A DNA stretch of 64,000 bases from Nitrospirota bacterium (GCA_963721805.1 CAVRJY010000001.1:64001-128000); one strand, 5' to 3'. Positions 8,413-61,159 are shown, counted from the stretch's first letter. The notes: a model not told the origin generated them from the letters alone. Numbers and translations: made by a program.

Positions 8413-8592
8413 AAAGCGCTCCAAATCGCTTGATACTGCGTTGGGCTTCAAAGACTCGCCCTCTATGTACGTCACAGTACACCATCGGGCGGTCTTCTCG
8501 CCCTGCCTTGTCTGAAGCCGATTTGGCCGCGCTTTCGGGGGTTGGTCGCGGCTCCGCCGCTGGACCCCCGCGCCCCCAAGGTCAAAGGCATT
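8413..8592 (-). repeat. Dispersed long-hairpin element, copy 1 (core 8413-8535 plus TTGACC leader)
   Basis: Reverse complement of the AAAGCGC..CCAAATCGGCTTCAGACAAGG..TGTAC-N6-GTACA..GTATCAAGCGATTTGGAGCGCTTT consensus. Confidence 0.92.
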
Positions 8593-8667
8593 ACTGAAAA
8601 ACTTCTTGGAATGCACAGGGCAGTTGCGGTATGATTTGCGCATGACCTTGCGTGGAGAAAGATTATT

Positions 8668-9426
8668 ATGAACGACCCTAACGGAGTATCTGCTCCTATC
8701 ATCCATCGCATAAAGCGACCTCGGGGTTTTACAATCTTGGCTTTCCTTCAAGCATTTTTGGCTGTTGGTGGAATCGGTAACGGTATTTTTCTCGATTCAT
8801 CATATGGTAGCGTCCCCAAACTCTTAGCCCTTGTTTATGGTCTAGCTGCGCTGGCATCTGCGATAGGTCTTTGGACAGTTCGACCTTGGGCATTGCAGTC
8901 CACAATAATTTTGTCCATGGCGACATTAATACGAATATTCAATCTGCAATTTGGAGCGAATGAAAGCCAGAGCATTCCTTTGAGTGTATTTGTTCCATAT
9001 GTATTGGTAGTTGGTTTTTTATTAGTGCTGATGCTTTATTATGTCAAAAAAGAACTTTCGAGAAGCCTAACCAATAGCTTAGTTTCAGAAGGACTTATCC
9101 CTAACCCAAATAGCAAGCAAAGTGTTTCTGTGGTCAGATCAGTTTTATATTCCTGCATATTATTTTTGATCGTCTCGTTTATCAATTTTGTCATAACAAT
9201 AGTTTTCATAAGCAAGGATCTTGTCACAGGTGCCATCTTTAATGCATTATTAAACTTGCTGCCTATTTATCTTCTTGCAAAATATTTTATTGCGCCCTTA
9301 AAGAGCAAGACAATTTATATTGCGTTCTTCATAGGCTCAATCATCGCATCAGTTATTTTAGTGATACCGTATGGTGATTATGTTTGGGATTTTATTTTTG
9401 ATTTACTTAGACACCATTTTAATTAA
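8668..9426 (+). CDS. Hypothetical AT-rich multi-pass membrane protein
   Basis: 252-aa ORF with about 7 hydrophobic segments and SD GGAG; clearly lower GC than its flanks. Confidence 0.75.
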   Translation: MNDPNGVSAPIIHRIKRPRGFTILAFLQAFLAVGGIGNGIFLDSSYGSVPKLLALVYGLAALASAIGLWTVRPWALQSTIILSMATLIRIFNLQFGANESQSIPLSVFVPYVLVVGFLLVLMLYYVKKELSRSLTNSLVSEGLIPNPNSKQSVSVVRSVLYSCILFLIVSFINFVITIVFISKDLVTGAIFNALLNLLPIYLLAKYFIAPLKSKTIYIAFFIGSIIASVILVIPYGDYVWDFIFDLLRHHFN

Positions 9427-9507
9427 TAGTGACGGGACACGATAGTGACCGACGCATAAGAAGTCGCGGCAGCAGCAACGGCCCAAACAGTAACGCTGTT
9501 TACTCCG

Positions 9508-9650
9508 AAATCTTACATTTGGATTCGTCACATGTAAGATTAGCGCCCAAACTTTACATATGAGCTTGTCTTATGTAAGTTTAGACCTCCAATCTTACAT
9601 ATGGGTTCGTCATACGCAGGCCTAGTGTCCAAATCTTATACATGTCAGAC
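9508..9650. repeat. 41-bp-period degenerate palindromic tandem repeat (~3.5 units)
   Basis: TTACAT at 9513, 9554, 9595 and TTATAC at 9636; unit 1 is AATCTTACAT-N13-ATGTAAGATT. Confidence 0.75.
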
Positions 9651-9684
9651 CACGGAGGCCGAGCTGCACCGCTCACTTTTAATC

Positions 9685-9859
9685 AAAGCCATTGACCTTG
9701 TGGGGTGCGGGGGGCTCCTTTATTCTCTCCCCCGAAAGCGCGCCCAAATCGGCTTCAGACAAGGCAGGGCGAGAAGACCGCCCGATGGTGTACTTGGGCG
9801 TACATAGAGGGCGAGTCTTTGAAGCCCCCAACGACGTATCAAGCGATTTGGCGCGCTTT
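9685..9859 (+). repeat. Long-hairpin element, copy 2 (core 9735-9859)
   Basis: Near-identical to copy 3; TTGACC leader at 9692. Confidence 0.92.
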
Positions 9860-9867
9860 AGAGAGGA

Positions 9868-11339: not shown

Positions 11340-11516
11340 AATGCCGTTGACCTTGGGGGGCCCGGGGGGCGTCAGTTGGCTTCCACACCCCCGAAAGCGC
11401 GCCCAAATCGGCTTCAGACAAGGCAGGGCGAGAAGACCGCCCGATGGTGTACTTGGGCGTACATAGAGGGCGAGTCTTTGAAGCCCAACGCAGTATCAAG
11501 CGATTTGGAGCGCTTT
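11340..11516 (+). repeat. Long-hairpin element, copy 3 (core 11394-11516)
   Basis: ATGCCGTTGACC leader and full core, ending 1 bp from the stop codon of the TPR glycosyltransferase. Confidence 0.92.
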
Positions 11517-11517
11517 C

Positions 11518-14788: not shown

Positions 14789-14853
14789 AAAGCGCACCAA
14801 ATCGCTTGATACGTCGTTAGGCATCGAAGACTCGCCCTCTATGTACGCCCAAG
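14789..14853 (-). repeat. Long-hairpin element, half copy
   Basis: AAAGCGCACCAAATCGCTTGATAC...TATGTACGCCCAAG, truncated at the apical loop. Confidence 0.85.
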
Positions 14854-14966: not shown

Positions 14967-14972
14967 ACCCCC

Positions 14973-16563: not shown

Positions 16564-16905
16564 AAAGCGCTCCAAATCGCTTGATACTGCGTTGGGCATC
16601 GAAGACTCGCCCTCTATGTACGTCACAGTACACCATCGGGGTGCCACGGGCACCTCTCCTGAAGAAAGGGCCAGTCGGCCCCTTGTCTGAAGCCGATTTG
16701 GGCGCGCTTTCGGGGGGCACGGATGAAGGACGCCCCCCGCGCCCCACGTGGTCAAAAGCATGTTCTGATGTCCGCGCTTAGGCATACATACGCATACCGC
16801 GCGCGCGTTTTATTTTAGAGTGTTCGGATATTGGGGGCAAAAGCGAGCCTAATCCGGCGGATTTAAAGGGATTTATGCGATCTCCCGCGTTCGGATGTTC
16901 GGATG
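16564..16905 (-). repeat. Long-hairpin element, copy 4 (core 16564-16710 with internal mini-hairpin cassette) plus partial ATCCGAACA arm
   Basis: The core matches the consensus; 16750-16905 is the reverse complement of the arm seen at 43180-43340 and 60827-60988. Confidence 0.9.
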
Positions 16906-17042
16906 TTTTGGCCGAAAATCGGGCAATCATAAGCCGCTCAATCAAACGCATTTTCCCTACTGAGCGCCTAGCCCGCCCAACCACTCCCCTCGCTAATATG
17001 GCCTGTGTATATCCCATACGCGCGATGATAAACCAAGCGGTC

Positions 17043-17100
17043 GGAACTGCGCCATGGGAACTGGTTCCATGGAACCAGTTCCTAGGAGTTGGTTCCGGTG
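17043..17100. repeat. 14-bp-period palindromic tandem repeat
   Basis: Units start at 17043, 17057, 17071 and 17085; perfect 26-bp palindrome GGAACTGGTTCCATGGAACCAGTTCC at 17057-17082. Confidence 0.7.
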
Positions 17101-18300
17101 TGTAAAGGTTACGCTCTTACCGGACAGTATCAGGCTGGAAAAAGCAGGCGGCAGCCAGCCCTTCCATCGGTTAGAATGTTTCACCACAAAACACAGACCG
17201 AAGGAGGAAGGGCATGACTGCCAAAGAAAAGATATCACAAGGGAGGCTTTCAATGCTTCAGCTGGCCGAGAGGCTCAGGAACGTGTCGGAGGCCTGTCGC
17301 CGCCGGGGGGTGAGCCGCAGCCAGTTTTACGAGTACAAGCGGGCGTTTCAGGAGCAGGGGTTTGCGGGGCTCGCGGACCTTCCGCCGATAGCGCGTAGCT
17401 GTCCCCACAAGACGCCTGAGGAGGCCCGCAAGCGAGTGATCGAGATGAGCCTTGCTCACCCCCGGTGGGGGAAGCAGCGCATCTTCGAGCACCTGCTTCT
17501 GGAGGGCATATTGGTGCGTCCCTCAACTGTGTATCGCATCCAGGTTCGCGAGGGGCTGGAGTCGAAGGCCAAGCGCATCCTCCGGCTTGAGCAGGAGGCT
17601 AACGGCAAGGAGATCGAGCTAACGGAGGAGCAGGTCAAGCTCATCGAGCGGGCCAATCCGTGCTTCAGGGAAAGGCATGTGGAGAGCGCATATCCGGGCT
17701 ATCTGCTCAGCCAGGACACCTTCACGGTGGGCAAGCTCAAGGGCATCGGGACCGTGTATCTGCAGGCCGTGGTGGACACGTACGGCTCTTATGCCTTCGG
17801 CAAGCTGTACACGTCGAAGAGGCCCGAGACGGCGGCCGACGTGCTCTACGACCGCGTGCTGCCGTTTTACGAGGACCATGGCATCAGGGTCCAGCATGTC
17901 CTGACGGACAACGGCTCGGAGTACTGCGGCAAGCTGCTGCGGCATCCGTACGAGCTGTTTCTGGCGCTTCACGACATCGCGCATCGAAGGACGAAGGTGG
18001 CGACACCGAGGACAAACGGATTCGTGGAGCGGTTTAATCGCACCATCCTGGACGAGTTCTTCTCGGAGACGTTCAGGTACCGGTTCTACGCATCGCTCGA
18101 TGAGCTGCAGTATGACCTCGACCGGTGGCTGCACCACTACAACAACGAGCGCCCTCACAAGGGCTATCGCAACATGGGCAGACGGCCAATAGAAACTATC
18201 GAGCTGGGCAAAAAGCTAAGACAGAAAGCTGAGGAGGAGGCCGCCTGATCAGTGCGACCGATGAGATGGAAAACTGTCCGGAGAGCACTGGACTTTTACA
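17101..18300 (+). mobile_element. IS481-family insertion sequence (1200 bp)
   Basis: TGT...ACA ends with imperfect ~28-bp TIRs (TGTAAA..CCGGACAGT); 8-bp direct repeat TTCCGGTG at 17093-17100 and 18301-18308. Confidence 0.92.
17214..18248 (+). CDS. IS481-family DDE transposase
   Basis: N-terminal HTH (NVSEACRRRGVSRSQFY) and rve core QDTF, TDNGSEY, TNGFVERFNRT, YNNERPH. Confidence 0.95.
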   Translation: MTAKEKISQGRLSMLQLAERLRNVSEACRRRGVSRSQFYEYKRAFQEQGFAGLADLPPIARSCPHKTPEEARKRVIEMSLAHPRWGKQRIFEHLLLEGILVRPSTVYRIQVREGLESKAKRILRLEQEANGKEIELTEEQVKLIERANPCFRERHVESAYPGYLLSQDTFTVGKLKGIGTVYLQAVVDTYGSYAFGKLYTSKRPETAADVLYDRVLPFYEDHGIRVQHVLTDNGSEYCGKLLRHPYELFLALHDIAHRRTKVATPRTNGFVERFNRTILDEFFSETFRYRFYASLDELQYDLDRWLHHYNNERPHKGYRNMGRRPIETIELGKKLRQKAEEEAA

Positions 18301-18350
18301 TTCCGGTGGAGTCTTTGACAAAAAATCTTTTAGTCTTTTCTGGCATTCAA

Positions 18351-19154
18351 TTATTTATCAAAAGGGCTATTGCGGTAATTCACAAGATCCTCGGCGGTCA
18401 TTTCCTTCGGTGGAACAAGACGATAATGTTTTTCAGTCGCTATGCCGATACCATTGCTGCCTTCCTCGAAAGCGAATAGTGCGATCAAGTTGTCCTCCAT
18501 GAATTGCGTCGCAATGGGTCGACATACAAGAGCGGGGAACTTCGCAGCACACATAGCGAAGTCCTGTTCTATCTGCACGATTCCTAGCTGATCCTTTCCA
18601 CCTTTGGCCTGCACAGGGAAGACATATTGAGCCCCGCGCCGATCAACTCCTATATAAAGTTCGTCGGTCTCAATCTGGCCCATTCCTGCAACAGTCGTTC
18701 TCAAATGGCTCTGCAAGGCGTAACAAGTTACGCCGGTAAAGATGTCTATGAGCCTGTTATAGCGCACCTTTGCAAGCAGAGCCTGCTCATCGCTCAAGGC
18801 ATACATCATGATGATTCCTGGAGTGGCGTCCGGTATTTTTGTCTCTGTCAACAATTCATTGGGGTTTATCCGTGGCAACGAGGTAAGCGAGAATTCATAA
18901 CGGGCGGTACCTACTGGCCGTATGACCCATTCCAAACCCTCCGGAGCAAGTTTACGGATGGAATCCGGCAGGGCCGCCCTGTACCGAAAAGTGTAAACAA
19001 TATCGCCAAGATTTTTCGGTAGAACGATACCCAGTTCCTGAGCGGTTCTTACGATCTCTTCTCTTTCGAAAGAGACTTCCGTGGCCATTGCGGTGTAGTG
19101 GCGTTCAAATATCTTTTCGATAAGCTGAGTGTATCTATTTTTACCCTTAGCCAT
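18351..19154 (-). CDS. Putative type II restriction endonuclease (PD-(D/E)xK-like)
   Basis: QIETDELYIG...PVQAKG nuclease-like motif; overlaps the MTase stop; AT-rich. Specificity not identifiable by eye. Confidence 0.7.
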   Translation of the reverse strand: MAKGKNRYTQLIEKIFERHYTAMATEVSFEREEIVRTAQELGIVLPKNLGDIVYTFRYRAALPDSIRKLAPEGLEWVIRPVGTARYEFSLTSLPRINPNELLTETKIPDATPGIIMMYALSDEQALLAKVRYNRLIDIFTGVTCYALQSHLRTTVAGMGQIETDELYIGVDRRGAQYVFPVQAKGGKDQLGIVQIEQDFAMCAAKFPALVCRPIATQFMEDNLIALFAFEEGSNGIGIATEKHYRLVPPKEMTAEDLVNYRNSPFDK

Positions 19155-20493
19155 AGGTTCCTCCGGTTCGTTTTCCATTTCGTCGGCCAGTCAGCTTACT
19201 CGGTCCTGGCCATCTTAAAATAACGACTTCCTCGCGCATTTGCTTCTTTGTAGATGTGGCAATTCGTGTGCGAAACAAGTCGATACCGATAAGTTCATAA
19301 CCCTGAGAAACCGCTATGTCAGCCAATAACTGGCCCGTTCGTATCATCACCTGAAGATATGATGCCTGATCCCCTACGACATATCCGAGGTGTGCGCCGG
19401 GCTTCAAGAAAGGGCGGAGTTCGTCAAGGTGACGCGCCATGCCGCCGAAATACAGTTTTGTAACTTTTCCGTATAATTTTTCAAAGCCAGATGTTTTCCC
19501 AAGTTCGATTCTTTTATTTTCTATTTCTTTAGCGATAGCCTGTATATCCTTATTTTTTTCGACCCATTTATCATCATCGTCTCCTTTGTAAACATTCCGG
19601 GTATTGGAGCGGAGAAGTCCTTTTTTGAGTGCTTGAAGTTCAGCCTTGTTATTGATGAATCCAAGCAGAACGGATTCTAGTCTTGTGGTGCGAGTATAGT
19701 CTTTCTCGTTCGGATATGGTGGGGATGTGAAAACGGCATCGATGGAATTAGGTTGCAGTACCTCACCAAAGTGTCTGGAATCGGCATGGAAGACGGTTGC
19801 CGGAACCTGTGCCCTCTTCACAGAACGAAGGTCATCGGCCATGATCCGGACTTCATCAAGCCATGATTCTATAACAGGAGCGTCTAGTTTCTTCTTGGGA
19901 TGAACCCCGACTTCGGGACCGAAGTGAAGGTTGCTTATAGAGAAGACCAGTGCTTTTGCGAGAGCAAGGGACGCATGTCTGTTATATCTTTCGTCTTGGA
20001 GTTTGTGCATTTGCTCCAAAAGAATAATGGTCTTGTGCAGTGGGTGAGGACTGATGGAGTCCTTTAAAAGTAGCTTTATGGTCTCTTGAGATAGAGACCG
20101 CAATTTTCTTCTGCCCCAAGAAGCTATAAGCCTGTTGGCCTCTTCTGCTATCGTTTCCGCATATGCGATAAGATCATCAGGATTAATTCCCCAGTCCAGC
20201 TTAACACCACTAGCAAAGAAGGGCATATGATTGGCTTCGATGCCTATACTAGGTATTCCGTTCAACTTGGCTTCGATAATTGTTGTCCCTGTTCCACAGA
20301 AAGGATCAAGAATTGTGCTTTTATGATTGAGATTAAATTTATTTATGTATTCACGAACAAGATGGGGTGGAAAGGAAAGGACAAAGCGATACCAGTCATG
20401 AAATGCTCGGTCTGTCACTTGAAGTTTATTTGCAGTTCCGTTTGTTCTTTTCGGAGCGATTTCCGTTATTGTTGTAACTGGATTAGTTTGCAC
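19147..20493 (-). CDS. Amino-DNA methyltransferase (SPPY; motif I before motif IV; likely m4C)
   Basis: LDPFCGTGTT followed by FTSPPY. Confidence 0.88.
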   Translation of the reverse strand: MQTNPVTTITEIAPKRTNGTANKLQVTDRAFHDWYRFVLSFPPHLVREYINKFNLNHKSTILDPFCGTGTTIIEAKLNGIPSIGIEANHMPFFASGVKLDWGINPDDLIAYAETIAEEANRLIASWGRRKLRSLSQETIKLLLKDSISPHPLHKTIILLEQMHKLQDERYNRHASLALAKALVFSISNLHFGPEVGVHPKKKLDAPVIESWLDEVRIMADDLRSVKRAQVPATVFHADSRHFGEVLQPNSIDAVFTSPPYPNEKDYTRTTRLESVLLGFINNKAELQALKKGLLRSNTRNVYKGDDDDKWVEKNKDIQAIAKEIENKRIELGKTSGFEKLYGKVTKLYFGGMARHLDELRPFLKPGAHLGYVVGDQASYLQVMIRTGQLLADIAVSQGYELIGIDLFRTRIATSTKKQMREEVVILRWPGPSKLTGRRNGKRTGGTYG

Positions 20494-20585
20494 TTCACTA
20501 ATGCTATCAAATCGATGGTAGGTATTTCAATGATGAACGGCGCTTTGCTCATAGCGGATACAAATCTAATCAGCTCCATCCCACG

Positions 20586-20632
20586 AAAGCGCGCGAAATC
20601 GTATCAGACAAGGAAGGGGCCAGTCGGCCCCC
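20586..20632 (+). repeat. Long-hairpin element, 5' fragment capped by a mini-hairpin
   Basis: AAAGCGCGCGAAATCGTATCAGACAAGG followed by GGGGCCAGTCGGCCCC. Confidence 0.7.
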
Positions 20633-20661
20633 TATGGTATATTAAGTATTGGTGTAAAAGG

Positions 20662-24967: not shown

Positions 24968-26635
24968 TCAGTAATCGAGTTTCAGGTTGCGGGTGGTGTC
25001 GGCCGCCTCGGCGCGCTTGAAGGCCGCCACGCGGTATGGCAGGTTCGGGCGGTCTCCGGCGAGGAGCTTCTCTATCGTGAGTATCTGGAGGCGCGGGAAG
25101 TCCCAGTTGAGTATGTCCGAGTGATAGAAGCCCTTTGTCGCGGCCTCGGTGGTCATATCGCGCGTCGGGGGCTCCAAGGTGATGAGGATGCCGAACTCGG
25201 CCTTCTCGCGGTCGGCCACATGGCCCAAATCGCGCATGTCCTTTACCGAGACCTTGCCGCTTTTGACCGAGACTATGCCGCGCGATATCTGGTCCTTGGC
25301 CTCATGGAAGTAGACATAGCCGTCGATCCCGGTGTCCGAGCCCTTCTTCCTGTCCCCGTAGGGCCGCGCGTCTATCAGCGAGAGCGCCCACCACTGGAAC
25401 TGGTAGCGGTCCTGAAGCGCAAGCTCCCGCGCGCCCGTAAGGTCCTCCGGCTCGCCTATGACCTTATAGTCCTTGCCCGGCTCTATCGAGAACATGTGCT
25501 TTAGCCGCCACTTGATGAGGTTCACCGAGAGGTGCGTGACGTCTATCCCTATCCAGCGGCGGTTTAGCCGTTGCGCGGCGGTGATAGTGGTGCCGCAGCC
25601 GCAGAACGGGTCGAGCACCACATCGCCCTCATTCGATGAGGCCTTAATGATGCGCTCCAGAAGCGCCTCCGGCTTCTGCGTCGGATAGCCGAGGCGTTCC
25701 TGTGCATGTGCGGATATTGGATTGATGTCATTTATGACATCTCTAATCGGTACGCCTGCATCTTCATTTATATATCTTTTCAATCCGGGTATTCCGCCGT
25801 CTTTTGCTGGCCAGTAGACCAAACCTTTTTTATCCAGAAGATCTAACTTTTCTTGTGTTGACATTTTATCTAAATCAATTTTCCCCTTTACTTCATTAAG
25901 GATTTTCATGGGGACTGCCCAGTGGCGTCCTTTGGATGTCGGGTCTATATCCCTCCAAGGCTTTCCTGAGTCACCTGTCCTCGTTCCCGCACCAGTTAAA
26001 TCGCCAACACGATAAACTCCGCCTTTGTCTTTATATCTGTAAAAATTCTCAATGTATGTTTCGTCATACTGTTCAAATACAGGATTCCAGACAGGCTCTC
26101 TGTCCTTGCCGTAGAAAAGTATTACATCATGGACTGGCCCCCATCTCTTTGATCCACTATGGCTGCTTGTCCTTTTCCACACTATCTCATTCCTGAAATT
26201 CTTCTTCCCGAATATCGTATCCATTACAACCTTTAGATAGTGTGACGCGGTGGGGTCACAATGCAGATAGATGCTCCCTGTGTCCTTGAGCACGCGCCTG
26301 AGTTCCAAAAGCCGCACGCACATCATCGTGAGATATGCCATCATGTCGTTTACCCCGATGAACGATCTAAACGCGCGCATCATCTCTACCACGTTGGCGG
26401 GCGCGGCCTCGACTATCGCCTGAAACGTCCGCTCCGCGTCCTCGTTCCAGTGCCAGGTGTCCTCAAACGCGGTGATCTGCGCGTCCGAGGACTTGCCGGT
26501 CGGTTCCTTGAAGAGTATGTTGTAGTCGGCCTTTGAGTTAAACGGCGGGTCGAGGTATATCAGGTCTGCCGATGCGTCCGGGACGTAGCGCCTCAGGATG
26601 TCGAGGTTGTCGCCGAAGTAGAGGGTGTTGTCCAT
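24968..26635 (-). CDS. Beta-class adenine DNA methyltransferase fused to a C-terminal Mrr-like nuclease domain
   Basis: [29 protein letters not shown]-terminal DTGIDG...VSVKSG. Confidence 0.87.
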
Positions 26636-26682: not shown

Positions 26683-26864
26683 TCAATGCCGTTGACCGCT
26701 CGCGCTTGACCCACGGGCATAACCAAAGCGCGATAAATCGGGGGCGGCTGCCCCTTTACTTCAGACAAGGAACCGGACGAAAAATAACCGGAGGCGTATA
26801 TGGACATACGTCGAGGATTATTTTTCGGGCGGTGACACAGTATGAAGCGATTTAGCGCGGCTTT
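26683..26864 (+). repeat. Long-hairpin element, copy 5 (divergent; core 26725-26864)
   Basis: ATGCCGTTGACC leader, ACTTCAGACAAGG, apex CGTAT-ATGGAC-ATACG and GTATGAAGCGATTTAGCGCGGCTTT end. Confidence 0.85.
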
Positions 26865-39951: not shown

Positions 39952-40069
39952 AAAGCCGCGCGAAACTCGCGTGGGGCCGACTGGCCCTTTCCCTATTCGC
40001 GGTGACGGGCACCGCTCACTCCGGGCGGTCTTCTCGCCCTTCCTTGTCTGACACGATTTCTCGTGCTTT
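39952..40069 (-). repeat. Long-hairpin element, degenerate copy filled with mini-modules
   Basis: 40022-40069 is the reverse complement of AAAGCACGAGAAATCGTGTCAGACAAGGAAGGGCGAGAAGACCGCCCG. Confidence 0.75.
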
Positions 40070-40116
40070 AATGTGGCCCCTGCCTAATCGTGCGAGCGGT
40101 CAACGGCATTGATGAG

Positions 40117-42867
40117 CTAACGCGACTGACGCTTCTTGCCCTTTTTGGGTTTATCCTCGGGCAGAAGCGAGGTGAGCTTTTGATACAACGAAAACAGAAA
40201 TGCTACGCGCTCGGCCTCTGACGCGAATGAGGTCTTGCCATATGCCTTGTCCACCTCGCGGTCGAGCGCCTGATGAGCCTTGCGGAGTTCAGGCGGCATG
40301 GCGATTGGGTCATAGAGGTCAGCTAGTGTCGAGTCAGGGAACTTTAGCCGGGCATCCAAGACTCCTTGCGCGGCCTTTTCTATCGCCTCGCGCTGCTTGT
40401 CCGTAACCTCCGGCCACGGAAAGTTGTTGTAGACTATCCCAGCGGAGTATTGATAGTCGCTCTTAAGCCTCCCGCATACCGAACGAACCCATGCCATATG
40501 CATGGTAGAGGACAAGACGCCAAAGTGAAACGCTTTAGCCCCAGCAATTGTGTATAGTTTGTTTGAGGCAATTGTTGCAGAAGACAAAAAGCCTATGGGG
40601 ATGAATGGGCGATTCACGGATGAGACTTCTGGAACCGCAAGATAATCTGATAAAGGTTGCCGAATTTCTCCAAACAATGTTGGGTTATTCGAAAGCGCTT
40701 GTGTTGTAGCTCTTGTGCTTCTGAGCCTAGCGCGGTTAACAGCTTCAACTCGTTCAACAATAGCGGGCATGGAGCGTAACACATCCGGGGAAATCCCTAT
40801 TAGCCATAAACACCAACGCTCTTTGCTGTTGATAAATTCCTCGCTACCCAAAAGAGGCCGTATCCAGCGCTTAGCATCAGGGTACGCTGAAAGTAATTCA
40901 TCTTTTTCTTGTGTAGAAAGTAAAAGATGCCCTCCATCGTTAGGCATCGAACCGAAAGCCATTCTAAGTTCATTACCACAAATTGGAGCTCGCCTTTTGT
41001 TAAGAAAAACTGATGGAGCATCAACAAGATAGGGATTGATGTTGATTGCATTGATAGCGTGGGGTTCAGATTTTAAAGTCTCGTACTCGAATATCCATTT
41101 TTCGGGCTCATCCTCAAGCGCAAATCCAATAATCACACAATGGACAGCGGCCTTGCCGCGCGCCTCGCTCTGCCACTGAAACGTCCTGTGAGCAAAGTTT
41201 ATCTTTACCCCTGATGCAAAGAGCACTGGCCACAAAATGCCTACCTGTTCACCCTGAGTAATGGAGTTCGTCGATACGAAAGCCGCGCGTATGGCGTGAT
41301 TTCCTCCCATATGAGCAGCGGCCTTCCGATACCAGCATGATACATAATCAAGAACCCCGGCACCTCTCACAGTCCTAAAAATATCATCCATATCCGCCCG
41401 TTGTTCATCAGTCCTATACTGTCTGCCCACAAACGGCGGGTTGCCAACGATATAACTAAGCGCCTCAGGCTTCACGACCTCGCGCCAGTCGATGCGGAGG
41501 GCGTTTCCATTAACGATAGTCGCGGCCTTCTTAAGCGGGAGCCGGACGAAGTACTGCCCGAACTCCTCCGATACGCGCAGGTTCATCTGATGGTCCATGA
41601 GCCACATCGCTACCTGCGCTATCTGGGCCGGGAACTCCTCTAGCTCGATGCCATAGAACTGGTCCACGTCCACGCGGATCATCTCGCCCACGCTCAGGAA
41701 ATCGGCCTTGTCCTTGTGAAGCGCCCTAAGCACCTCAAGCTCAAGCAGGCGGAGTTCCCGGTATGCGATGACGAGGAAGTTTCCGCATCCACATGCGGGG
41801 TCGAGGATGCGGATCGATGCGAGTTTTTTGTGGAACTCAAGGAGGAGCTTTTGGTTCCTTTTTATCCGCTCGAACTCGGCCCGCAAGGAATCAATAAACA
41901 GGGGGTGGAGGGCCTTTAGGATATTCGTCTCGGTCGTGTAGTGAGCGCCGAGGTTGCGGCGGGCCTTCGCGTCCATGATCGACTGAAACAGCGAGCCGAA
42001 GATGGCGGGGCTTATGCGGCTCCAGTCGAGCGCGCAGCACTCAAGCAGGCTATCGCGCATCTTGCTGTCAAATGACGCGAGCGGCAGGGCCTCCTCAAAC
42101 AGCCTGCCGTTGACATATGGGAAAGCGGCGAGCTGCTCGTCGAGGTTCCGCTGGCGCTTCTCGGCCGGCGTGTTTAATACCTGAAAGAACTGGGCCATGT
42201 GCATGCCCAGGTCTGAGCCGTCTTCGGAGGTGCGCTGCTCTATATAGTCCTGAAACTGGCTGCGCTCGAATATCGAGGTGTCATCTGAAAACAGGCAAAA
42301 CAGGAGGCGCACGAGCAGGATCTCAAGGGGGTGGCCCTCGTAGCCCGTGGCCTTGAGGAGGTCGTGCAGGCGGCCAAGCCGCTCGGCGGCCTTTATGTTC
42401 ACGGGGTCTTCCTGCCCGAACGAGCGCGTCTGGTATCCGGCGATAAAACCGAACAGCCGGACGTTCTTGTAAAACTCGGTCAGCGGGAAATTGTGTGTCT
42501 TGTCTTCGTCCAGGTCATATAGCCTAATACGCGCGAAGTCCGAGACGACCACATAACGCGGCAGGTCGCGCTCCTTTAGACCGGAAAAGTAATCAAACGC
42601 CTGACGCTTTGCGCGGTCGAGGTCCTTGTCGCGAGATTTGTGCTCTACCAGCAAAACACCCTTCCAGAGCAGGTCGATAAAACCACCTGCGCCGTCGTCC
42701 TTTTTGACCGGCTTCTCGAAGCTCGCGACCTTTCGGCGGTTGATACCGAAGACATTGAAAAATTCGTTCCAGAAGGTCTGGGCCTCGGCCCCCTCGGATG
42801 TCTCGTCTTCCCATTCCTTCGAGAACGCGAGCGCGCGGCCCTTTATCTCGTTCCAGCTAAGCGGCAT
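40117..42867 (-). CDS. MmeI-like type IIL restriction-modification enzyme
   Basis: MPLSWNEIK..., FIDLLWKG.LLVEHKS nuclease, LGAHYT, LDPACGCGNFL, GNPPF and STLADLYDP. Confidence 0.92.
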   Translation of the reverse strand: MPLSWNEIKGRALAFSKEWEDETSEGAEAQTFWNEFFNVFGINRRKVASFEKPVKKDDGAGGFIDLLWKGVLLVEHKSRDKDLDRAKRQAFDYFSGLKERDLPRYVVVSDFARIRLYDLDEDKTHNFPLTEFYKNVRLFGFIAGYQTRSFGQEDPVNIKAAERLGRLHDLLKATGYEGHPLEILLVRLLFCLFSDDTSIFERSQFQDYIEQRTSEDGSDLGMHMAQFFQVLNTPAEKRQRNLDEQLAAFPYVNGRLFEEALPLASFDSKMRDSLLECCALDWSRISPAIFGSLFQSIMDAKARRNLGAHYTTETNILKALHPLFIDSLRAEFERIKRNQKLLLEFHKKLASIRILDPACGCGNFLVIAYRELRLLELEVLRALHKDKADFLSVGEMIRVDVDQFYGIELEEFPAQIAQVAMWLMDHQMNLRVSEEFGQYFVRLPLKKAATIVNGNALRIDWREVVKPEALSYIVGNPPFVGRQYRTDEQRADMDDIFRTVRGAGVLDYVSCWYRKAAAHMGGNHAIRAAFVSTNSITQGEQVGILWPVLFASGVKINFAHRTFQWQSEARGKAAVHCVIIGFALEDEPEKWIFEYETLKSEPHAINAININPYLVDAPSVFLNKRRAPICGNELRMAFGSMPNDGGHLLLSTQEKDELLSAYPDAKRWIRPLLGSEEFINSKERWCLWLIGISPDVLRSMPAIVERVEAVNRARLRSTRATTQALSNNPTLFGEIRQPLSDYLAVPEVSSVNRPFIPIGFLSSATIASNKLYTIAGAKAFHFGVLSSTMHMAWVRSVCGRLKSDYQYSAGIVYNNFPWPEVTDKQREAIEKAAQGVLDARLKFPDSTLADLYDPIAMPPELRKAHQALDREVDKAYGKTSFASEAERVAFLFSLYQKLTSLLPEDKPKKGKKRQSR

Positions 42868-42970: not shown

Positions 42971-43491
42971 TTCACTAACCATAGTTAATCGTAAGTTAAT
43001 AGAAAACGCACGAACCTCAATTTTTCCTATCAACTTCGGTTTATATATAAACCAAAGTTTGGTATTCTTTGTTGTATAGTGGTGCAATGAGTAAGATATG
43101 GTCATATTGGATGGGCTGGGCGGGGGAGGTTGGAGGGTTCCGCGCGTGTTCGGATAAATCGGCAAATACCGCGTTTTTTATCCGAACATCCGAACAAGGG
43201 AAAAACAGAAAAGCCAAATTATCCGGCGTGTTATGCCCGATTTTGCGCCCAACATCCGAACAAAAAAGGCAAAAACGCGCGCGCACGCGCGCGAAATGCG
43301 TAACTATGCCTAAGCGCGGACATCAGAACATGCCGTTGACCGCTCGCGCGATTATGCTGGGGAAGCTTAAAGCGCGAGAAATCGACTTCAGACAAGGAAC
43401 GGTGAGGAAAACGTCCGACGGTGTACTTGAGCGTACTCCGAGGACGGATTTCCGAAGCCGTGACGCAGTATCAAGCGATTTGGCGCGCTTT
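42971..43491 (+). repeat. Full-length composite element: ~370-bp ATCCGAACA arm, leader and hairpin copy 6 (core 43369-43491)
   Basis: Arm is colinear with 60619-60988; the core shows compensatory changes relative to other copies. Confidence 0.88.
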
Positions 43492-53060: not shown

Positions 53061-53250
53061 AAAGCGCTCCAAATCGCTTGATACGTCGTCACCATTTGAA
53101 AATCGCCCTCCAGAGTACATCTCAGTACACTTGCGGGCTATTTTCAAACGATTCCTAGTCTGAAGACGATTTGGGCGCGCTTTCGGGGGTGGGGAAAAAG
53201 GATGGGGCCAGTCGGCCCGCCCCCCGCGCCCCCAAGGTCAACGGCTTAAT
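53061..53250 (-). repeat. Long-hairpin element, copy 7 (core 53061-53183)
   Basis: Consensus termini with a variant inner stem TTTGAAAAT/ATTTTCAAA; GGTCAA leader near 53236. Confidence 0.9.
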
Positions 53251-53432
53251 TAGAAATGAGCGCTAAGGCGCGAATAGTGAGAGGGGTCCGCGACCCCGCG
53301 AATATGAGCCTGGGGGCGCTGCCCCCCTGCCCGTGGCATCCCGCTTAATGAATATTTTACTAATAGTGTAAACTATTGCCCTATTCAGCCATATGGAGTG
53401 CTCGCAAAAATATTGACTCACTGGGGGAACGG

Positions 53433-54266
53433 ATGGGACAGGGAATTCGCAGGCCGGGGATCATAACCGCCATAATCTTATTGATTTCGGTATTTTGTTT
53501 ATATGCGCCCGCCTTTGCCGAGTCCGAGCCGTCTATCTACATAGCGGACGTGGACGTCTCAGCTAAGACCATCGCCATCTACGGCACTCACTTCGCACCG
53601 AACGGCTCAAATCACCCCGCCTTTCCCAAGGCGTTCCTCGGCGGCGAGCAGCTTACTATTGATTCGTATGATGACGGCCTGATAAACGCCACGCTGCCCG
53701 ATGACATCACGGACGGGAGCTATCTGCTTGAGGTCCTAAGGACAAGGGACAAGCATGGCACGTTTATGGTGACCATCGGCGCGACCGGACTGCAGGGGCC
53801 AAAGGGCGACAAGGGCGACACGGGGGATACAGGGGCTAAGGGCGACAAGGGTGATAAGGGTGACACCGGAGCTACCGGCGCAACAGGCGCAACAGGCGCA
53901 ACAGGCGCGACAGGTGCCACCGGGACTAACGCAACGTCCATAACCGTGGGCCGCTTTGTGACCGCTACCAGTGGGAATGTTACCTGGGGAATGACGAGCG
54001 CGGATGCAACGTGCACTTGTCCGTCGGGCTACACATTGTACGGGCAGACAATAAATAATTGGTATGCTGACGATGGCGTGAGCGTAACATCCACAACTGT
54101 ATCCATAGGCAGTTACTTATGGTATACGTCGGGTGCACAGCATGCCGCGGTGCCAAATACCGCGACGTGCACTATCCAACGTGGCGCGGACGTGGCTTTC
54201 TCTGGCGTTGCCAATATCGAGTGCATGTGCTTCTGCATGGGAGGCCCAACAATTGAGTATCAATAG
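53433..54266 (+). CDS. Secreted protein: IPT-like N-domain, collagen G-X-Y repeats and Cys-containing C-domain
   Basis: Signal peptide (PAFA/E); [16 protein letters not shown]..(GAT)n; paralogous to the next gene. Confidence 0.8.
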
Positions 54267-54318
54267 CCTGGACTGCCCCATCTGATCAGCCAAAGCTTAA
54301 CACGCAACCCAGCATAGA

Positions 54319-54344
54319 GGGGGGCCGATTGGCCCCCTTTTTTT
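54319..54344 (+). terminator. Intrinsic terminator (mini-hairpin family)
   Basis: GGGGGCC-GATT-GGCCCCC followed by T7. Confidence 0.7.
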
Positions 54345-54527
54345 GCCAGCGAATAACCCCGCGAAGAAGTGAGCGAAGCGAATAGATGAGCGCGTAGCGC
54401 GAACATTTGCCGGGGGGCGCTGCCCCCGGCACCCCCTAGCCGGACGGGTTAAAAAGGTGTAAGCTTCGACTATACGGAAGGTCGAGACTCATCTAACCAA
54501 CAAATTCCGACTGAAAAGGGGGAACAG

Positions 54528-55154
54528 ATGGGACATGGTATTCGCAAAACGGGGATCATAACCGCGGCCTTAGTATTGTTCTCGGTGTTCTGCTTTTGCA
54601 TGCCCGCCTTTGCCGAGAAGGCCCCTGCGATAGCCGTTGTGGCTGTAGATTTAACCAACCACAGCATGCTCATCAACGGCGCGCGGTTCGAGCCGGGTTC
54701 AGATCACATTGCTTTCCCCAAGGTCTTTCTCGGTGGCGAGAAGCTGACTATTGTCTCACATTCAGACGGCCTGATAAACGCCACGCTGCCTGACGACATC
54801 ACTAATGGGAGCTATCTGCTTAAGGTCTTCAGGACTTCGGACAAGTCTGCCGCCTTCGAGGTGACTATCGGCACCGCAAGCTTCGGCACCGACACGAACC
54901 AAGCGGCCACCGGTGCCGGGGCAGAGTGTACGGTGGGTGAGATCCTGCTGACTGCCGGCGCTGTGGCAAACGGGATGCCGGCCAGCGGGCAGATCCTTCT
55001 TATCAATGATTACGATGTCCTCTTTTCCCTGTTGGGCACAACATACGGCGGAGATGGCGATACCACATTCGCCCTGCCCGACATGCGGGCTATAGCGCCC
55101 AATCACATGACGTACTCGATTTGCATTTTTGGGGTCTATCCCAGTCAGAATTGA
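54528..55154 (+). CDS. Secreted protein: same IPT-like N-domain plus phage tail-collar domain
   Basis: N-terminal ~115 aa homologous to the 53433 gene; VGEI..GQIL.I..LFSLLGTTYGGDG.TTFALPDMR tail-collar motif. Confidence 0.82.
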   Translation: MGHGIRKTGIITAALVLFSVFCFCMPAFAEKAPAIAVVAVDLTNHSMLINGARFEPGSDHIAFPKVFLGGEKLTIVSHSDGLINATLPDDITNGSYLLKVFRTSDKSAAFEVTIGTASFGTDTNQAATGAGAECTVGEILLTAGAVANGMPASGQILLINDYDVLFSLLGTTYGGDGDTTFALPDMRAIAPNHMTYSICIFGVYPSQN

Positions 55155-55201
55155 ACCAGTGGCGCCATGGGCCTCTTTTCTAGTGAAAGGTGCCTGTGGC
55201 G

Positions 55202-55894
55202 CTATTTTAACAGCGGAGTTTCCTTTTCGAAGACATGCTTGAAGATCTCAAACAGCTCCTTGCCTTCCTGAGTATTTAAGTACAAGGCAGTCGAGATGCT
55301 GATCAGGCTCGATAGCGCGACCCCGCGCCAATCGAACCGGTTGAGCCTCTCGGCCGCATCTGACAGGTATGACAGCCTCTCGTCGATTACCGACAGCGCA
55401 TCCGCCGAGGGCCCGAATCTCTCTGCGACTAGCGACCGGAACTCTTCCATGGAGAGTTTCATCTGCTGCTTTTCCGCGGCCGAGAACTGCCGGGGCTCTG
55501 GATCGCCGATCAACAGATGGCCCGCTGGCTGAAGGCTGCCGCCGATCTGGCTCCAGAGGTCGGGCTCCGATAAATCGCTTATGTATGGCAGCGCGTAATC
55601 CGTAAGCCATTTCCTGAAATAACCGTAGATGATCTTGATCGGCCTGGTACCTTGAGTATAGCTCGATTCGGTCTCGGGGTTACGCGCGGATGGCGACCGG
55701 TTGAACCTGCAGTCGAAGCCATCGGGATTGTCAGGCAGGTTCCTCGTCTCGAAGGTAAGCTCAGTGCCCGCGACCCTGATGATGAACACGCTGTCGAGGT
55801 TCGCGTGCTGCACTTCCTCCCCGATGAAGACACTGGGATCGAGGCCATATTCTTTAATTATATCGATGAAGCCGTTTTTGTATTTCTTGAGCAT
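55202..55894 (-). CDS. Hypothetical protein
   Basis: 230-aa ORF with SD GAAGG; no recognisable motif. Confidence 0.65.
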   Translation of the reverse strand: MLKKYKNGFIDIIKEYGLDPSVFIGEEVQHANLDSVFIIRVAGTELTFETRNLPDNPDGFDCRFNRSPSARNPETESSYTQGTRPIKIIYGYFRKWLTDYALPYISDLSEPDLWSQIGGSLQPAGHLLIGDPEPRQFSAAEKQQMKLSMEEFRSLVAERFGPSADALSVIDERLSYLSDAAERLNRFDWRGVALSSLISISTALYLNTQEGKELFEIFKHVFEKETPLLK

Positions 55895-55996
55895 AATCAG
55901 CCTTCATCTTGTCCATATGGCTGCTTTATCTCATAGATGCGCCCCATGGCCTAAATATATCACATAATATAGGGGACCGCTCCCCCGCTTACATTA

Positions 55997-56200
55997 ATCA
56001 ATGCCTTTGACCACGGGGGTGCGGGGGGCTGTCAGTTGTCGTGCCCCCCGAAAGCGCGCCCAAATCGTCTTCAGACAAGGGGGCCGGTTGGCCCCTGTCT
56101 TTTAGGAGAAGTGCCCGTGGCACCCCGATGGTGTACTGTGACGTACATAGAGGGCGAGTCTTTGATGCCCAACGACGTATCAAGCGATTTGGCGCGCTTT
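55997..56200 (+). repeat. Long-hairpin element, copy 8 (core 56051-56200 with the same internal cassette as copy 4)
   Basis: ATGCCTTTGACC leader; GGGGCCGGTTGGCCCC..GTGCCCGTGGCAC replaces the 5' inner stem. Confidence 0.92.
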
Positions 56201-58583: not shown

Positions 58584-58693
58584 ACCCATAAGATATTCCC
58601 CCGGCCCTTGAAAATGCAAGGCCCGCGGGCGCGGGATTTATTTTCAGCGCATGGTTATGTTATAAAGAAAGACTATCTTCGCAACTAAGGAGA

Positions 58694-59374
58694 ATGCTGA
58701 TGAAAAAGGCGTTTTTATTTCTGCTGGTATTTGTGGCGCTCGTGGCGTGCAACAAGGCCGCGGTGCCCGGCGCTTCCGGCCCCAAGGATGCGGGCAAGGT
58801 GCTCGCGAACATTAACGGCATGCCGATCACCGAGGGTGACCTCAAGCGCGAGATCGGCTACCTGCAGCCCGAGGCCCGCGAGATGTTCGCGGAGGAAGGC
58901 GGCCTGAAGGCCGTGCTCGAAGAGGTAATCAAGAAGGATATGCTCTACCAGGAGGCCAAGAAGCTCGGCCTGCAGGACTCCCAGGACATAAAGGACCGGC
59001 TCGAGGAGTACAAGAAGCGCGCGACCATCGAGCTGCTGCTTGAAAAGAATATCATGGATACCGTGAAGGTCGACGACAAGGAAGTCCGCGACTTCTATGA
59101 CAAGAACATCGACAGTTTCGTGATGCAGTCCCCGGACGGCAAGGGCAAGCCCCGCACGATAGAGTTCGACAAGGTCAAGGGCCTCATCAAGGAGCGCCTG
59201 ACGCAGGACAAGCAGAAAGAGGCGTTCGACAAGTACATGGACTCCCTGAAGTCGAAGTACAAGGTCGAGGTCAACCAGGCAGCGCTCGACCAGCTCCCGC
59301 CGATCAAGGGTGGCGGCGCCGTTACAAACGCTCCCTCAGGGATGAACGAGCCCGCGATGCCGGCAGGCAAGTAG
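58694..59374 (+). CDS. SurA-N/PrsA-like lipoprotein chaperone
   Basis: Lipobox LVAC, VLANING..IT, LYQEAKKLGL, EVRDFYDKN and LKSKYKVEVN. Confidence 0.78.
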   Translation: MLMKKAFLFLLVFVALVACNKAAVPGASGPKDAGKVLANINGMPITEGDLKREIGYLQPEAREMFAEEGGLKAVLEEVIKKDMLYQEAKKLGLQDSQDIKDRLEEYKKRATIELLLEKNIMDTVKVDDKEVRDFYDKNIDSFVMQSPDGKGKPRTIEFDKVKGLIKERLTQDKQKEAFDKYMDSLKSKYKVEVNQAALDQLPPIKGGGAVTNAPSGMNEPAMPAGK

Positions 59375-59380
59375 GGGCGC

Positions 59381-59599
59381 ATGCCGATGAATTGCTGGGA
59401 GTTCAAGAAATGCGGGCGAGAGAGGGGCGGCGCGCACGAGGCTGAATTCGGGCCATGCCCGGCGTTTCCGTCCGGCGGGCGCAAGTGCGCTAAGGTCGCG
59501 GGCACTATGTGCCACGGCAAGGTCGCGGGCACCTTCGCGATGAAGCTCGCAAGCTGCATGAGCTGTGATTTCTACAAGAGCAAGGACTACGACAGGTAG
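59381..59599 (+). CDS. Small Cys-rich two-CW-domain protein
   Basis: NCWEFKKCGRE..CPA..GRKC..VAGTMC..CMSCDFY. Confidence 0.75.
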   Translation: MPMNCWEFKKCGRERGGAHEAEFGPCPAFPSGGRKCAKVAGTMCHGKVAGTFAMKLASCMSCDFYKSKDYDR

Positions 59600-59679
59600 G
59601 GTTTCAATCATAACGCATACCGGCCGGGGCCGGGCTCGCACGCTGCGGGTCCGGCCCCGGTTTTTTGCTATAATCGCGG

Positions 59680-60399
59680 ATGGCGCTATGGAGCGTGAGG
59701 ATGAGGGCCGAGGGCCGCAAGGGCGAGCACGTCTCGGGGGCCGAGGGCATATATAAGGAGGCTGAGGTCGCGGCCGCCGCTGCGCGATACATCGAGCGCG
59801 CCCGCTCACACCCGCGCGGGGCCGCGCTGCACGTCACGGTCACGGTCGAGCCGATACCCGGCAGGCCGCGCAAACTGCCCCCGCTCAAGGTCAGCACGCT
59901 CGATACCCACACGCCCAAAGAGGCGCGCGCCTCGGCATCCGGGATGCTCCGCGACCTCGGCGTATCGGAGGCCGCGATATCGGCCGCGTTCGGGGTGCTC
60001 GGTGCGCCGGGCAGGATGCGCGGGGCGGCCCTGATCGACGCCGGGACAGGCCGCAGGCTCGAGCCGGATCAAGGGCGCGGCGTGCGCGCAAGCAGGATCG
60101 GGGCTGGCCCGTCGATAGGCCCCGCTCTCGGGGAGCTGGATACGCCGACCGTGCGTGAGGCGCTCGTGCTGGCCACGAAGGTGGCCTCCGCGCCCGGCGT
60201 GATCGCTGAACTCTGCGCCTCGGACGACCCTGACTACACGACCGGATACCTGGCGTCCCGGAGGTTCGGGTACGTGCGGCTGCTGAATATTAAACGTCTG
60301 CGGAGCAGGCGCGGCGGGCGGGTCGTCTTTGTCAGGCCGGGAGCGGACGTTGAAAAACTCATTGCATACCTCGAACTGAGGCCCGTGCTGGTCGGATAG
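59680..60399 (+). CDS. bioW: 6-carboxyhexanoate--CoA ligase
   Basis: SVRMRA..HVSGAE, RA.SHPRG, MRGA, RGVR, EALVLATKV and ELCASDDPDYTTGY. Confidence 0.92.
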   Translation: MALWSVRMRAEGRKGEHVSGAEGIYKEAEVAAAAARYIERARSHPRGAALHVTVTVEPIPGRPRKLPPLKVSTLDTHTPKEARASASGMLRDLGVSEAAISAAFGVLGAPGRMRGAALIDAGTGRRLEPDQGRGVRASRIGAGPSIGPALGELDTPTVREALVLATKVASAPGVIAELCASDDPDYTTGYLASRRFGYVRLLNIKRLRSRRGGRVVFVRPGADVEKLIAYLELRPVLVG

Positions 60400-60618
60400 G
60401 GGCAACCCGATAGAAGCAAAATGCGGTTTCAGGGATTGTCTTAAGATTGGGTTGCTGCTGCCCGTTAGGGGACGGGCAGCAGCTAGGGGAGGTAACGAAA
60501 AGCTGGATTAATGATATGCCGGTTTCCCGGCCTTGTCAAGCAAATATTTAGGTTGCATGATAATTATAGTTATAGGTTTAAAAAATATATGAATCCCTAG
60601 GAACCGCTGCTGGCCCGG

Positions 60619-61159
60619 TTCATTAACCGTAGTTGACCGGAAGTTAGTAGAAAACGCACGACCCTTAATTTTTTCTATAAGCTTCGGTTTATATATAAAC
60701 CAAAGTATATGGCTTTTTGGTGTATAGTGGTGCATGGGCATGATATGGTCATGTTTGGAGAGCGGAACCGAGGAGGCTGAAGGTCTAGCCGCATGTTCGG
60801 ATGATGGGCCGAAAATAGAGGTTTTTATCCGAACATCCGAACGGTGCGCAGACAAACAAATGAGCCTTTTCAAGATGTTAGCTCCTGTTTTGCGCCCGGC
60901 ATCCGAACAGAATCGGCAAAAACGCGCGCGCACGCGCGCGGAATGCGTAACTATACCTAAGCGCGAGCATCCGAACATGCCTTTGACCTTGTGGGGCGCG
61001 GGGGGCGGGGCCGACTGGCCCCCTTCTCTCCCCCCGAAAGCTCGGCCAAATCGGCTTCAGACTAGGCAGGGCGAGAAGACCGCCCGATGGTGTACTTGGA
61101 CGTACATAGAGGGCGAGTCTTTGAAGCCCAACGACGTATCAAACGATTTGGAGCGCTTT
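60619..61159 (+). repeat. Full-length composite element: ATCCGAACA arm, leader and hairpin copy 9 (core 61037-61159)
   Basis: Arm is colinear with 42971-43340; the core is nearly identical to copy 3. Confidence 0.9.

Follow-up and report, generated by a model that had tools for sequence, protein, structure and literature searches.

The locus and the census of copies

The window analysed here, a stretch of 64,000 nucleotides from a Nitrospirota bacterium (positions 64001-128000 of contig C1 in a 2.78-Mb assembly of nine contigs, 94% complete), encodes dnaA, dnaN, gyrA and rho and carries, dispersed between its genes, copies of a non-coding repeat built around a long hairpin, which is the subject of this work. 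Nine full and three partial copies had been listed in the initial annotation, and all cores and fragments were located in the sequence at the positions claimed. They are given below by the coordinates of the whole unit, counted from the first base of the window.

8413..8591, minus strand: full copy, leader at 8591-8580, then linker and core (8535-8413); 3' end directly behind the dnaN terminator
9686..9859, plus strand: full copy, core 9735-9859; the stop codon of citrate synthase is 8 bases from the 3' end
11341..11516, plus strand: full copy, unpaired, core 11394-11516; 3' end at the stop codon of a TPR gene
16564..16761, minus strand: full copy behind rho, core 16564-16710; left middle arm replaced by two short GC-rich hairpins
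26686..26864, plus strand: full but divergent copy, core 26725-26864; the other linker type, with an extra small hairpin (basal stem)
43330..43491, plus strand: full copy, core 43369-43491; the stop codon of a SufBD gene is near the 3' end
53061..53247, minus strand: full copy, core 53061-53183; the stop codon of a molybdopterin-binding gene is 8 bases from the 3' end
56001..56200, plus strand: full copy, core 56051-56200; left middle arm replaced by short hairpins
60977..61159, plus strand: full copy, core 61037-61159; the one of the nine with its 3' side towards a gene start (ArsR)
14789..14853, minus strand: fragment, apex and right arm only
20575..20643, plus strand: fragment at the end of the islet 16905..20574, with the left stem but neither leader nor right arm
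39952..40109, minus strand: partial copy; leader, linker and left arm are present, and small GC-rich hairpins stand in for the right arm

A repeat profile built from copies gave 243 matches in the 2.78-Mb genome and none in the reversed genome, and the whole model was spanned by 170 of the 243. No Rfam family reached its gathering threshold in the window; with the limit relaxed to E <= 5, at seven loci, the only match over a copy was sX9 (23.6 bits, cut-off 44), at a Pseudomonas locus. Searches of the literature outside subscription papers and supplements gave no printed description of this repeat family, or of cores resembling ERIC repeats outside Gammaproteobacteria. The copies showed no replichore bias (42 versus 45), and an association with tRNA genes in this genome was rejected, 4 of 49 tRNA/tmRNA genes lying within 400 bp of a copy.

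Anatomy of the repeat unit

The repeat had been described as an element of about 125 bp, which proved too short, the full unit in the window measuring 160-200 bp and consisting of leader, linker and a 123-bp core. Read from its 5' end, an AT-rich degenerate zone is followed by the 12-bp leader, AWGCCKTTGACC, by a linker of two or three types, and by the 123-bp hairpin running from AAAGCGC to GCGCTTT. The leader is 93-98% conserved per position, and positions -6, -4, -3 and -2 are conserved in 168, 170, 167 and 162 of 174 rows, the TGAC part of the leader having itself served to select these rows. A leader matrix gave 164 matches, 156 of which were tied to a hairpin and eight were not, with none in the reversed genome. 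The leader forms the 5' end of the unit and is unrelated to the 3' end save for a short, weak likeness; the main family in this genome is without terminal inverted repeats, which a few copies keep. No signal of target duplication was obtained for single copies (3.89 versus 3.93, n=155) or for pairs (3.88 versus 3.96, n=51). At C4:138125-138434 and at C1:1546413-1546726 a host copy holds a related core without a leader, nested at an identical apex position. Upstream, a non-coding module of 360 bp, which has repeated 9-mers, an AT-rich palindrome and a palindrome as its left end, occurs in two subtypes and in 27 copies genome-wide, 23 of them directly before a leader.

Fold, covariation and shuffling of the hairpin

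Folding of five copies on both strands gave z scores of -4.5 to -7.5 against 200 shuffles. Every stem swap quoted in the initial annotation was present in the sequence, and its statement that the fold is kept holds for most copies. It does not hold for two of the nine, at 16564 and 56051, in which the substitute left-arm hairpins do not pair with the right arm; genome-wide, the left middle arm is replaced by non-pairing short hairpins in 18 of 148 classified copies.

Selection on structure, as suggested for this repeat, was assessed in an alignment of 32 rows, 18 from this genome and 14 from other genomes (Clostridia and a Desulfovibrionaceae copy included). Both-sided changes occurred in 16 of 22 pairs and in 130 cells, compared with 42 +/- 5 in shuffles, and 89.8% of cells were paired, compared with 23-52% when the partners were slid. 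The structure was derived from the alignment itself and the foreign rows had been found via loop words, so that the covariation is supportive and does not amount to a probability. The covariation exceeds the controls, and selection on the hairpin fold is supported by the alignment. Much of the covariation within the genome reflects a few subtypes shuffled in blocks and not compensations that arose independently.

The hairpin family is shuffled in blocks between copies. The two arms of a copy agree tier by tier (normalised mutual information 0.80, 0.80 and 0.67, with 0.40 in the middle tier), and the outer tiers and the middle tier assort nearly freely (0.12-0.16). No two of 151 cores are identical, in contrast to the copies of the insertion sequences (ISs) IS200, IS30 and IS481. 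A check for strand preference via G-U pairs, proposed at the outset, showed in 148 standard cores that one strand is preferred: G-T outnumbered A-C by 98 to 19 among 2812 cells, and the strand read from leader to hairpin was the more stable in 130 of 148 with RNA parameters and in 142 of 148 with DNA parameters.

Placement of the copies around small foreign islets

The copies are polar with respect to base composition, GC content being 0.49-0.52 on the leader side and 0.62-0.63 on the other side of 155 copies. Inward-facing copies stand at 95 of the 218 borders of 109 low-GC segments, where 9.95 were expected and the maximum in 200 random placements was 21; this islet count is window-based, a gene-based count having been discarded since the gene caller misses low-GC genes. 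The large low-GC islands with phage-type integrases, about 100 kb in all, have no copies inside and none at their borders. Neighbours with leaders face to face (-/+) lie a median of 1.5 kb apart, 55 of 73 within 3 kb, whereas +/- neighbours lie a median of 8.7 kb apart, 8 of 71 within 3 kb. Inward pairs within 6.5 kb account for 96 of the 155 full copies, and seven inward pairs are empty. The cargo is heterogeneous and includes toxin-antitoxin, restriction-modification, abortive infection (Abi), KAP NTPase, HEPN and GNAT genes and many unknowns. This polarity, the inward pairs around foreign genes and the ERIC-type likeness had all been overlooked in the initial annotation. In the window, the islets and cargo genes, with their open reading frames (ORFs), are as follows.

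8592..9685: islet in an inward pair, with a 252-aa ORF without Pfam match and 41-bp tandem repeats, GC 0.40
16905..20574: islet with an IS481-family transposase (17214-18248), a 275-aa ORF and an N6/N4 methyltransferase, GC 0.50
24968..26635, minus strand: methyltransferase-Mrr gene on the leader side of the copy at 26686, with no partner copy
40117..42867, minus strand: cargo, an MmeI-type restriction-modification gene
53248..56000: islet with a collagen-repeat ORF, a tail-collar-domain ORF and a 230-aa ORF, GC 0.55

The first islet ends in the three 41-bp tandem repeats (9509-9644), and in the last the collagen-repeat and tail-collar ORFs (53376-55154) are related and in tandem, 71-77% alike in DNA.

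At the opposite end of the unit, the stop codon of a convergent gene faces the 3' end in 130 of 203 copies, mostly within 25 bases. TAG and TAA are over-represented at these stops (103 of 130, against 1258 of 2064 core genes), and these counts rest on a gene caller made for this analysis. The stop-codon rule does not explain the polarity, because low GC on the leader side is seen at 45% of the copies that face a stop and at 63% of those that face a start, far above the gene ends without a repeat (46 of 1904 at stops and 68 of 1967 at starts). The partners of a pair were no more alike than random copies (0.652 versus 0.651, n=36) and had no complementary cassette ends (3.41 versus 3.70 matches, n=44). 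A rule of one linker type per end was also tried and was not found, the combinations being AA 12, BA 11, BB 8 and AB 5.

Different cargo at the same address

The assembly itself allowed some addresses to be compared. Contigs C3, C6, C7, C8 and C9 are 80-98% identical to parts of C1, with many frameshifts in the matching stretches, and despite a low contamination figure this likeness may reflect mixed populations or duplications. C9, with 80-87% identity to C1:844-858 kb, retains the two border copies together with the 360-bp module; the genes between them differ, C9 carrying a DUF4019 gene and two unknowns and C1 DUF5677 and a HepT pair. In C6, whose left flank is 98% identical to that of C1, a copy stands behind a stop codon and the islet is a different one, the left copy being absent from C1. 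Alternative gene sets at one syntenic site bounded by conserved sequence were thus seen in two cases, C9 versus C1 and C6 versus C1.

The repeats themselves had also changed. At three orthologous positions, five of the six flanks ranked 1-2 of 150 and one upstream flank ranked 14, whereas the cores ranked 127, 121 and 19 and matched other copies at 98, 92 and 89%. An FMN-reductase gene lies between two same-direction copies at two loci, and homology stops 2-9 bases from the repeats. Four contig sets from sequencing runs gave short pieces only, none of which spanned an islet. Elsewhere in the assembly, C4:32-18743 is self-inverted.

The core in other genomes

BLASTN detected the repeat in none of 40 relatives, while a covariance model of the core (R1) found it in nine of the 40. 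An exact pattern of two loop words matched at least 64 stretches of the genome collection; among the matches listed, 12 loci scored with the profile, 11 of Clostridia type and one from Desulfovibrionaceae, and two more folded alike, one of them from Pseudomonas. The remaining pattern matches among those listed look like chance. R1 found the core, with up to 92 matches, in 16 of the 27 genomes with the pattern, 12 of these 16 having supplied training rows for R1. The inner ~95 bp of the core recurs in multiple copies in several phyla (Clostridia, a Desulfovibrionaceae genome, the relatives), and the core is enclosed by terminal inverted repeats, which vary by genome, in relatives, in a Pseudomonas genome and in two genomes of deltaproteobacteria. 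In one of the carrier genomes (G003), the 49 end-word matches are those of short elements, and the ends of its single PF01609 element are different; an autonomous IS with shared terminal inverted repeats was found neither there nor among the IS200, IS30 and IS481 of the present genome.

Among 317 genomes of the order, the present one alone had the leader-plus-stem form (105 matches). It was absent from the 10 other genomes of the family, and 5 of the 316 other genomes of the order gave six single matches with no core behind them. Of 40 loci from other genomes, 25 follow the rule that the 3' end lies at a stop codon, and GC polarity is absent (mean difference -0.004). A phage origin was rejected, since 9, 109 and 0 pattern matches in viral contigs included none with a core, and two scans of metagenome contigs, a set outside which near relatives may fall, gave no match.

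Some further observations on the core were made in these genomes. Two loci of G003 (L223, L224) are 82-bp terminal-repeat forms without the inner hairpin, apparently clean deletions; head-to-tail core arrays with a 123-129-bp period stand behind stop codons in Clostridia (L236 on G041:C34, L056 and L071); and at L129 (G061:C33) a terminal-repeat copy begins 11 bases from a tRNA gene.

Likeness to ERIC

ERIC, or IRU, are repeats of ~127 bp described for enterobacteria in PMC2229807, PMC3184786, PMC10969869 and PMC2267715. ERIC copies were taken from a Serratia genome (G055) by a core pattern that agrees with the ERIC primers printed in PMC6328724. In 67 kb holding 25 ERIC cores, the 20 top-ranked matches of R1, which had been built without ERIC, were all ERIC cores in the correct strand and register, at E 0.002-1.5 with three at E <= 0.01, the next match scoring 9.3 bits; these Serratia copies are closely related to each other. 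The five cores that were missed carry arm insertions. The two basal loop words are shared, being present in 146 and 144 of 148 cores and in 16 and 17 of 18 ERIC rows, with the left word partly used to select the rows of this genome.

The resemblance extends to the length (123 versus ~127 bp), the single long irregular hairpin with basal loop words on both arms, the short apical stem under a small purine-rich loop, the intergenic position near gene ends and the arm insertions. Unlike ERIC, the repeat has no TA-ended terminal inverted repeat and no target duplication, and it has an added leader and linker, an extra loop tier and a polarity towards foreign DNA. By these sequence comparisons the core is ERIC-like, probably a remote relative and not an ERIC, and the likeness to ERIC-type repeats lowers the novelty of the hairpin itself. 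PMC10969869 describes the ERIC family for enterobacteria and Vibrionaceae, and an ERIC-like core common to Clostridia, Desulfovibrionaceae, Pseudomonas and the present lineage would widen it; the same paper gives sizes for the Chunjie MITE (miniature inverted-repeat transposable element) of Geobacter. Mobility of ERIC by a transposase lacks experimental support according to PMC2229807, and the conserved loop words offer candidate sites for protein binding, which would bear on how such repeats move.

Enzymes encoded in the genome and comparison with known systems

An HUH, IS200/IS605-like or integrase-type enzyme had been suggested to act on the hairpin, with the advice to look for copies flanking a RAYT, TnpA(Y1) or tyrosine recombinase gene. 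The gene content of the genome gave this no support. XerC, XerD, five other tyrosine integrases, one resolvase, six IS200, seven IS30, ten IS481 and ComEC are encoded. The only Y1 genes are those of the six identical IS200, which score 154.9 bits with the IS200/IS605 model and 40.4 bits with the RAYT model (cut-off 80), and the five non-Xer integrases and the resolvase are located in large islands, none of them adjoining a copy. None of seven PF00589 matches reaches the TIGR02249 cut-off for an integron integrase (best 126.5 bits, cut-off 265). An IS91 Y2 transposase gene gave no match at E <= 1 in this 94% complete genome, and IS110, PF01609 and IS630 genes were likewise not found in the assembly, whose incompleteness means that absence is no proof. 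In four other carrier genomes the Y1 genes are not flanked by the hairpin.

Several systems with comparable features are known. Integron attC sites form strand-biased imperfect hairpins, carry cassette cargo without target duplication and stand in direct arrays; unlike these, inverted dispersed pairs dominate here, the attC-type ends RYYYAAC...GTTRRRY occur in 0 of 155 copies, and there is no IntI. In the pdif modules of Acinetobacter plasmids, accessory modules with toxin-antitoxin-rich cargo lie between inversely oriented sites. The present modules are also bounded by inversely oriented sites, and XerC and XerD are encoded, but the repeat is chromosomal, has a long fold under selection and has no dif-like 28-mer in the leader zone, where the genome's own dif is matched at 17 of 28 positions at best. 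REPs (repetitive extragenic palindromes) and REPINs are abundant at gene ends, form inverted pairs and serve as targets of insertion sequences. IS30 likewise sits at one fixed hairpin site in five of seven cases; the unit is, however, much longer than a REPIN, has kilobase cargo between the members of a pair and is accompanied by no RAYT. By the tests run, the repeat is not an integron, REPIN, pdif or IS200/IS605 derivative.

In its mode of working it is closest to the exchange that has been proposed at the NIME (Neisseria intergenic mosaic element) repeats and minimal mobile elements of Neisseria, and in its look to ERIC. According to PMC1797815, the NIME/dRS3 arrays and minimal mobile elements are dispersed syntenic repeats proposed to promote the exchange of adjacent genes with incoming DNA, homologously or site-specifically. 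The dRS3 palindrome is 20 bp long and stands in arrays, and a phage recombinase is the candidate enzyme. Both systems have small sets of genes that alternate at a single address; in contrast to dRS3, the present repeat is a 160-200-bp polar hairpin in single inward pairs, with no IS110-type gene.

A model for exchange at the repeats

This folded non-coding repeat marks fixed addresses at which small packets of foreign genes, and the repeats themselves, are exchanged, in all probability by recombination of one copy with another and with no dedicated enzyme found. We put at about one in two the probability that an ERIC-like repeat has been turned into dispersed exchange points working by homologous recombination. 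The observations behind this reading are the same address with different cargo, the cores replaced while their flanks stay, the shuffled tiers and the absence of target duplication.

In such a model the 123-bp core would have its origin in a non-autonomous ERIC-like hairpin repeat, presumably descended from a terminal-repeat element moved by a transposase; its distribution and the position of its 3' end behind stop codons are observed. In this lineage the repeat has a 12-bp leader and a linker where a left terminal repeat would stand, keeps to fixed gene borders and faces small foreign islets. DNA between two inward copies could move into and out of other addresses by two crossovers inside the repeats, such moves being possible because ~170 copies of 75-98% identity are spread over the chromosome, and crossovers in the conserved loop blocks would swap whole hairpin tiers between copies. 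These crossovers would be of the RecA type with incoming DNA, a ComEC gene being present, and would need no dedicated enzyme.

Small accessory islets with defence, toxin-antitoxin and restriction genes are usually credited to integrons, transposons and phage integrases, whereas in this genome a single repeat, accompanied by none of those enzymes, borders the majority of small islets, and different cargo is seen at one address. If recombination from repeat to repeat is responsible, a selfish element would have turned into a scaffold for exchange across the genome, which for the Neisseria arrays has been proposed and not shown.

A number of points weigh against exchange by homologous recombination between ERIC-like repeats. 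The strongest is the conserved leader, for homologous recombination needs no 12-bp leader; nor does it need a strand-specific fold. Repeated independent insertion at a hot spot would also give different subtypes at one address. Only two comparable content differences bordered by repeats are at hand, and C9 and C6 may stem from sister populations or from duplications of old date. A third content difference, C1:807.5-809.6 kb versus C7 and C8, has no repeat, and turnover is therefore not confined to repeat addresses. Competence is indicated by one gene, ComEC. The link to ERIC is one-directional, for a model built from ERIC only (R2) finds one of the nine window copies, at E 3.1, and R1 run over the whole Serratia genome gives no match at E 0.01.

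The leader and the fold lead to the main rival, a dedicated hairpin-specific recombinase, which we regard as unlikely. The leader and folded top strand would here be the site of a recombinase or HUH nuclease acting on single-stranded DNA with integron- or REP-like chemistry at dispersed inverted sites, the enzyme being supplied in trans, encoded in the unassembled 6% of the genome, or an unrecognised host protein. The sharp boundary of the leader and its tie to the hairpin (156 of 164 matrix matches, none in the reversed genome) speak for such an enzyme, as do the better folding of one strand (142 of 148, DNA parameters), the lack of target duplication and the leaderless cores nested at the same apex position in two copies; at one orthologous site, moreover, the replaced body begins exactly behind the leader, and the cargo resembles the content of integron cassettes. 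However, the genome has no IntI, RAYT, IS91, IS110, PF01609 or IS630 gene, attC-type ends (0 of 155) and a convincing dif match (best 17 of 28) are missing, the Y1 genes of the four other carrier genomes are not hairpin-flanked, and the viral contigs gave no phage copy. An extended form of this idea is also rather unlikely and is offered tentatively: a dispersed gene-capture system of ~50-60 chromosomal landing pads, each with two inward leader-hairpin sites, recombined as folded single strands by a not yet recognised enzyme, the core being the same ancient module as in ERIC. If this were true, the factor that reads the core would also account for the recognition and movement of ERIC-type repeats.

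It seems doubtful to us that the repeat is a selfish MITE-like element with two target preferences, a stop codon on one side and AT-rich DNA on the other; the islets would then arrive otherwise and the pairs would be a by-product. The same core inside terminal inverted repeats in relatives, and in a few copies of this genome, is consistent with it, and a TA target would predict the excess of TAG and TAA at the 3' end (103 of 130 versus 1258 of 2064). A site that has no repeats shows a change of content as well. The repeat is nevertheless absent from the ~100 kb of large low-GC islands, holds orthologous positions across 15-20% divergence, shows neither identical copies nor target duplication, has no GC polarity in the 40 loci of other genomes and forms seven empty head-to-head pairs. 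In the one comparison of a filled with an empty site, the copy present in C6 and absent in C1, the adjacent islet differs too.

Least probable is a role mainly as an RNA structure or transcription barrier, shielding core genes from transcription that comes out of foreign DNA or affecting mRNA stability as for ERIC (for which PMC2229807 reports co-transcription and an effect on the stability of upstream mRNA): the excess of G-T over A-C on the leader-to-hairpin strand, which is read outwards from the islet, and the stop-codon rule in 25 of the 40 foreign loci favour it, but a convergent core gene would transcribe the less stable strand, a consensus scan of 8200-12000 placed neither a terminator at the core nor a promoter at the leader, no Rfam family matches, and core replacement and cargo exchange are left unexplained.

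Insertion sequences, modules and other features

The resident insertion sequences were rejected as movers of the repeat. IS200, also considered as a PATE parent, has its own, different short terminal hairpins, and IS30 and IS481 too have ends of their own; all three are guests, lodged within the repeat or next to it. An IS30-family element occupies one fixed base of the hairpin left arm, in the same orientation, in five of its seven copies and is apparently target-specific.

C1:387255, C1:650408, C1:760721, C2:367111 and C2:397059: IS30 in the left arm

All ten IS481 copies lie within 565 bp of a repeat copy. A small repeat of tandem 14-16-bp palindromic words flanks IS481 at 17050-17090 and at nine other sites, in some cases beside a weak copy of the hairpin core. 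Short GC-rich, REP-like hairpins cluster in the window at 2289-2378, 14900-14970, 32930-32964 and 54312-54450; 61 of 103 strand matches are found no more than 250 bp from a copy, and arms of the main hairpin are in places replaced by these words.

The 360-bp module is represented in the window as follows.

42975..43329, plus strand: 360-bp module joined to the leader
60623..60976, plus strand: second 360-bp module joined to the leader, with no coding cargo
16762..16904, minus strand: partial, iteron-like 360-bp module joined to the leader

The module also occurs without a hairpin at C1:624276 and C4:96272, and IS200 sits twice in its left palindrome. A single dif-like site was found at C1:1448129-1448156, and GC skew along C1 is almost flat. 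A lone left end of the 360-bp module lies at ~24813, just after two identical 16-bp palindromes (24721-24736 and 24783-24798), 19 kb from dnaA; these are the genome's only two such matches and fit the parS motif.

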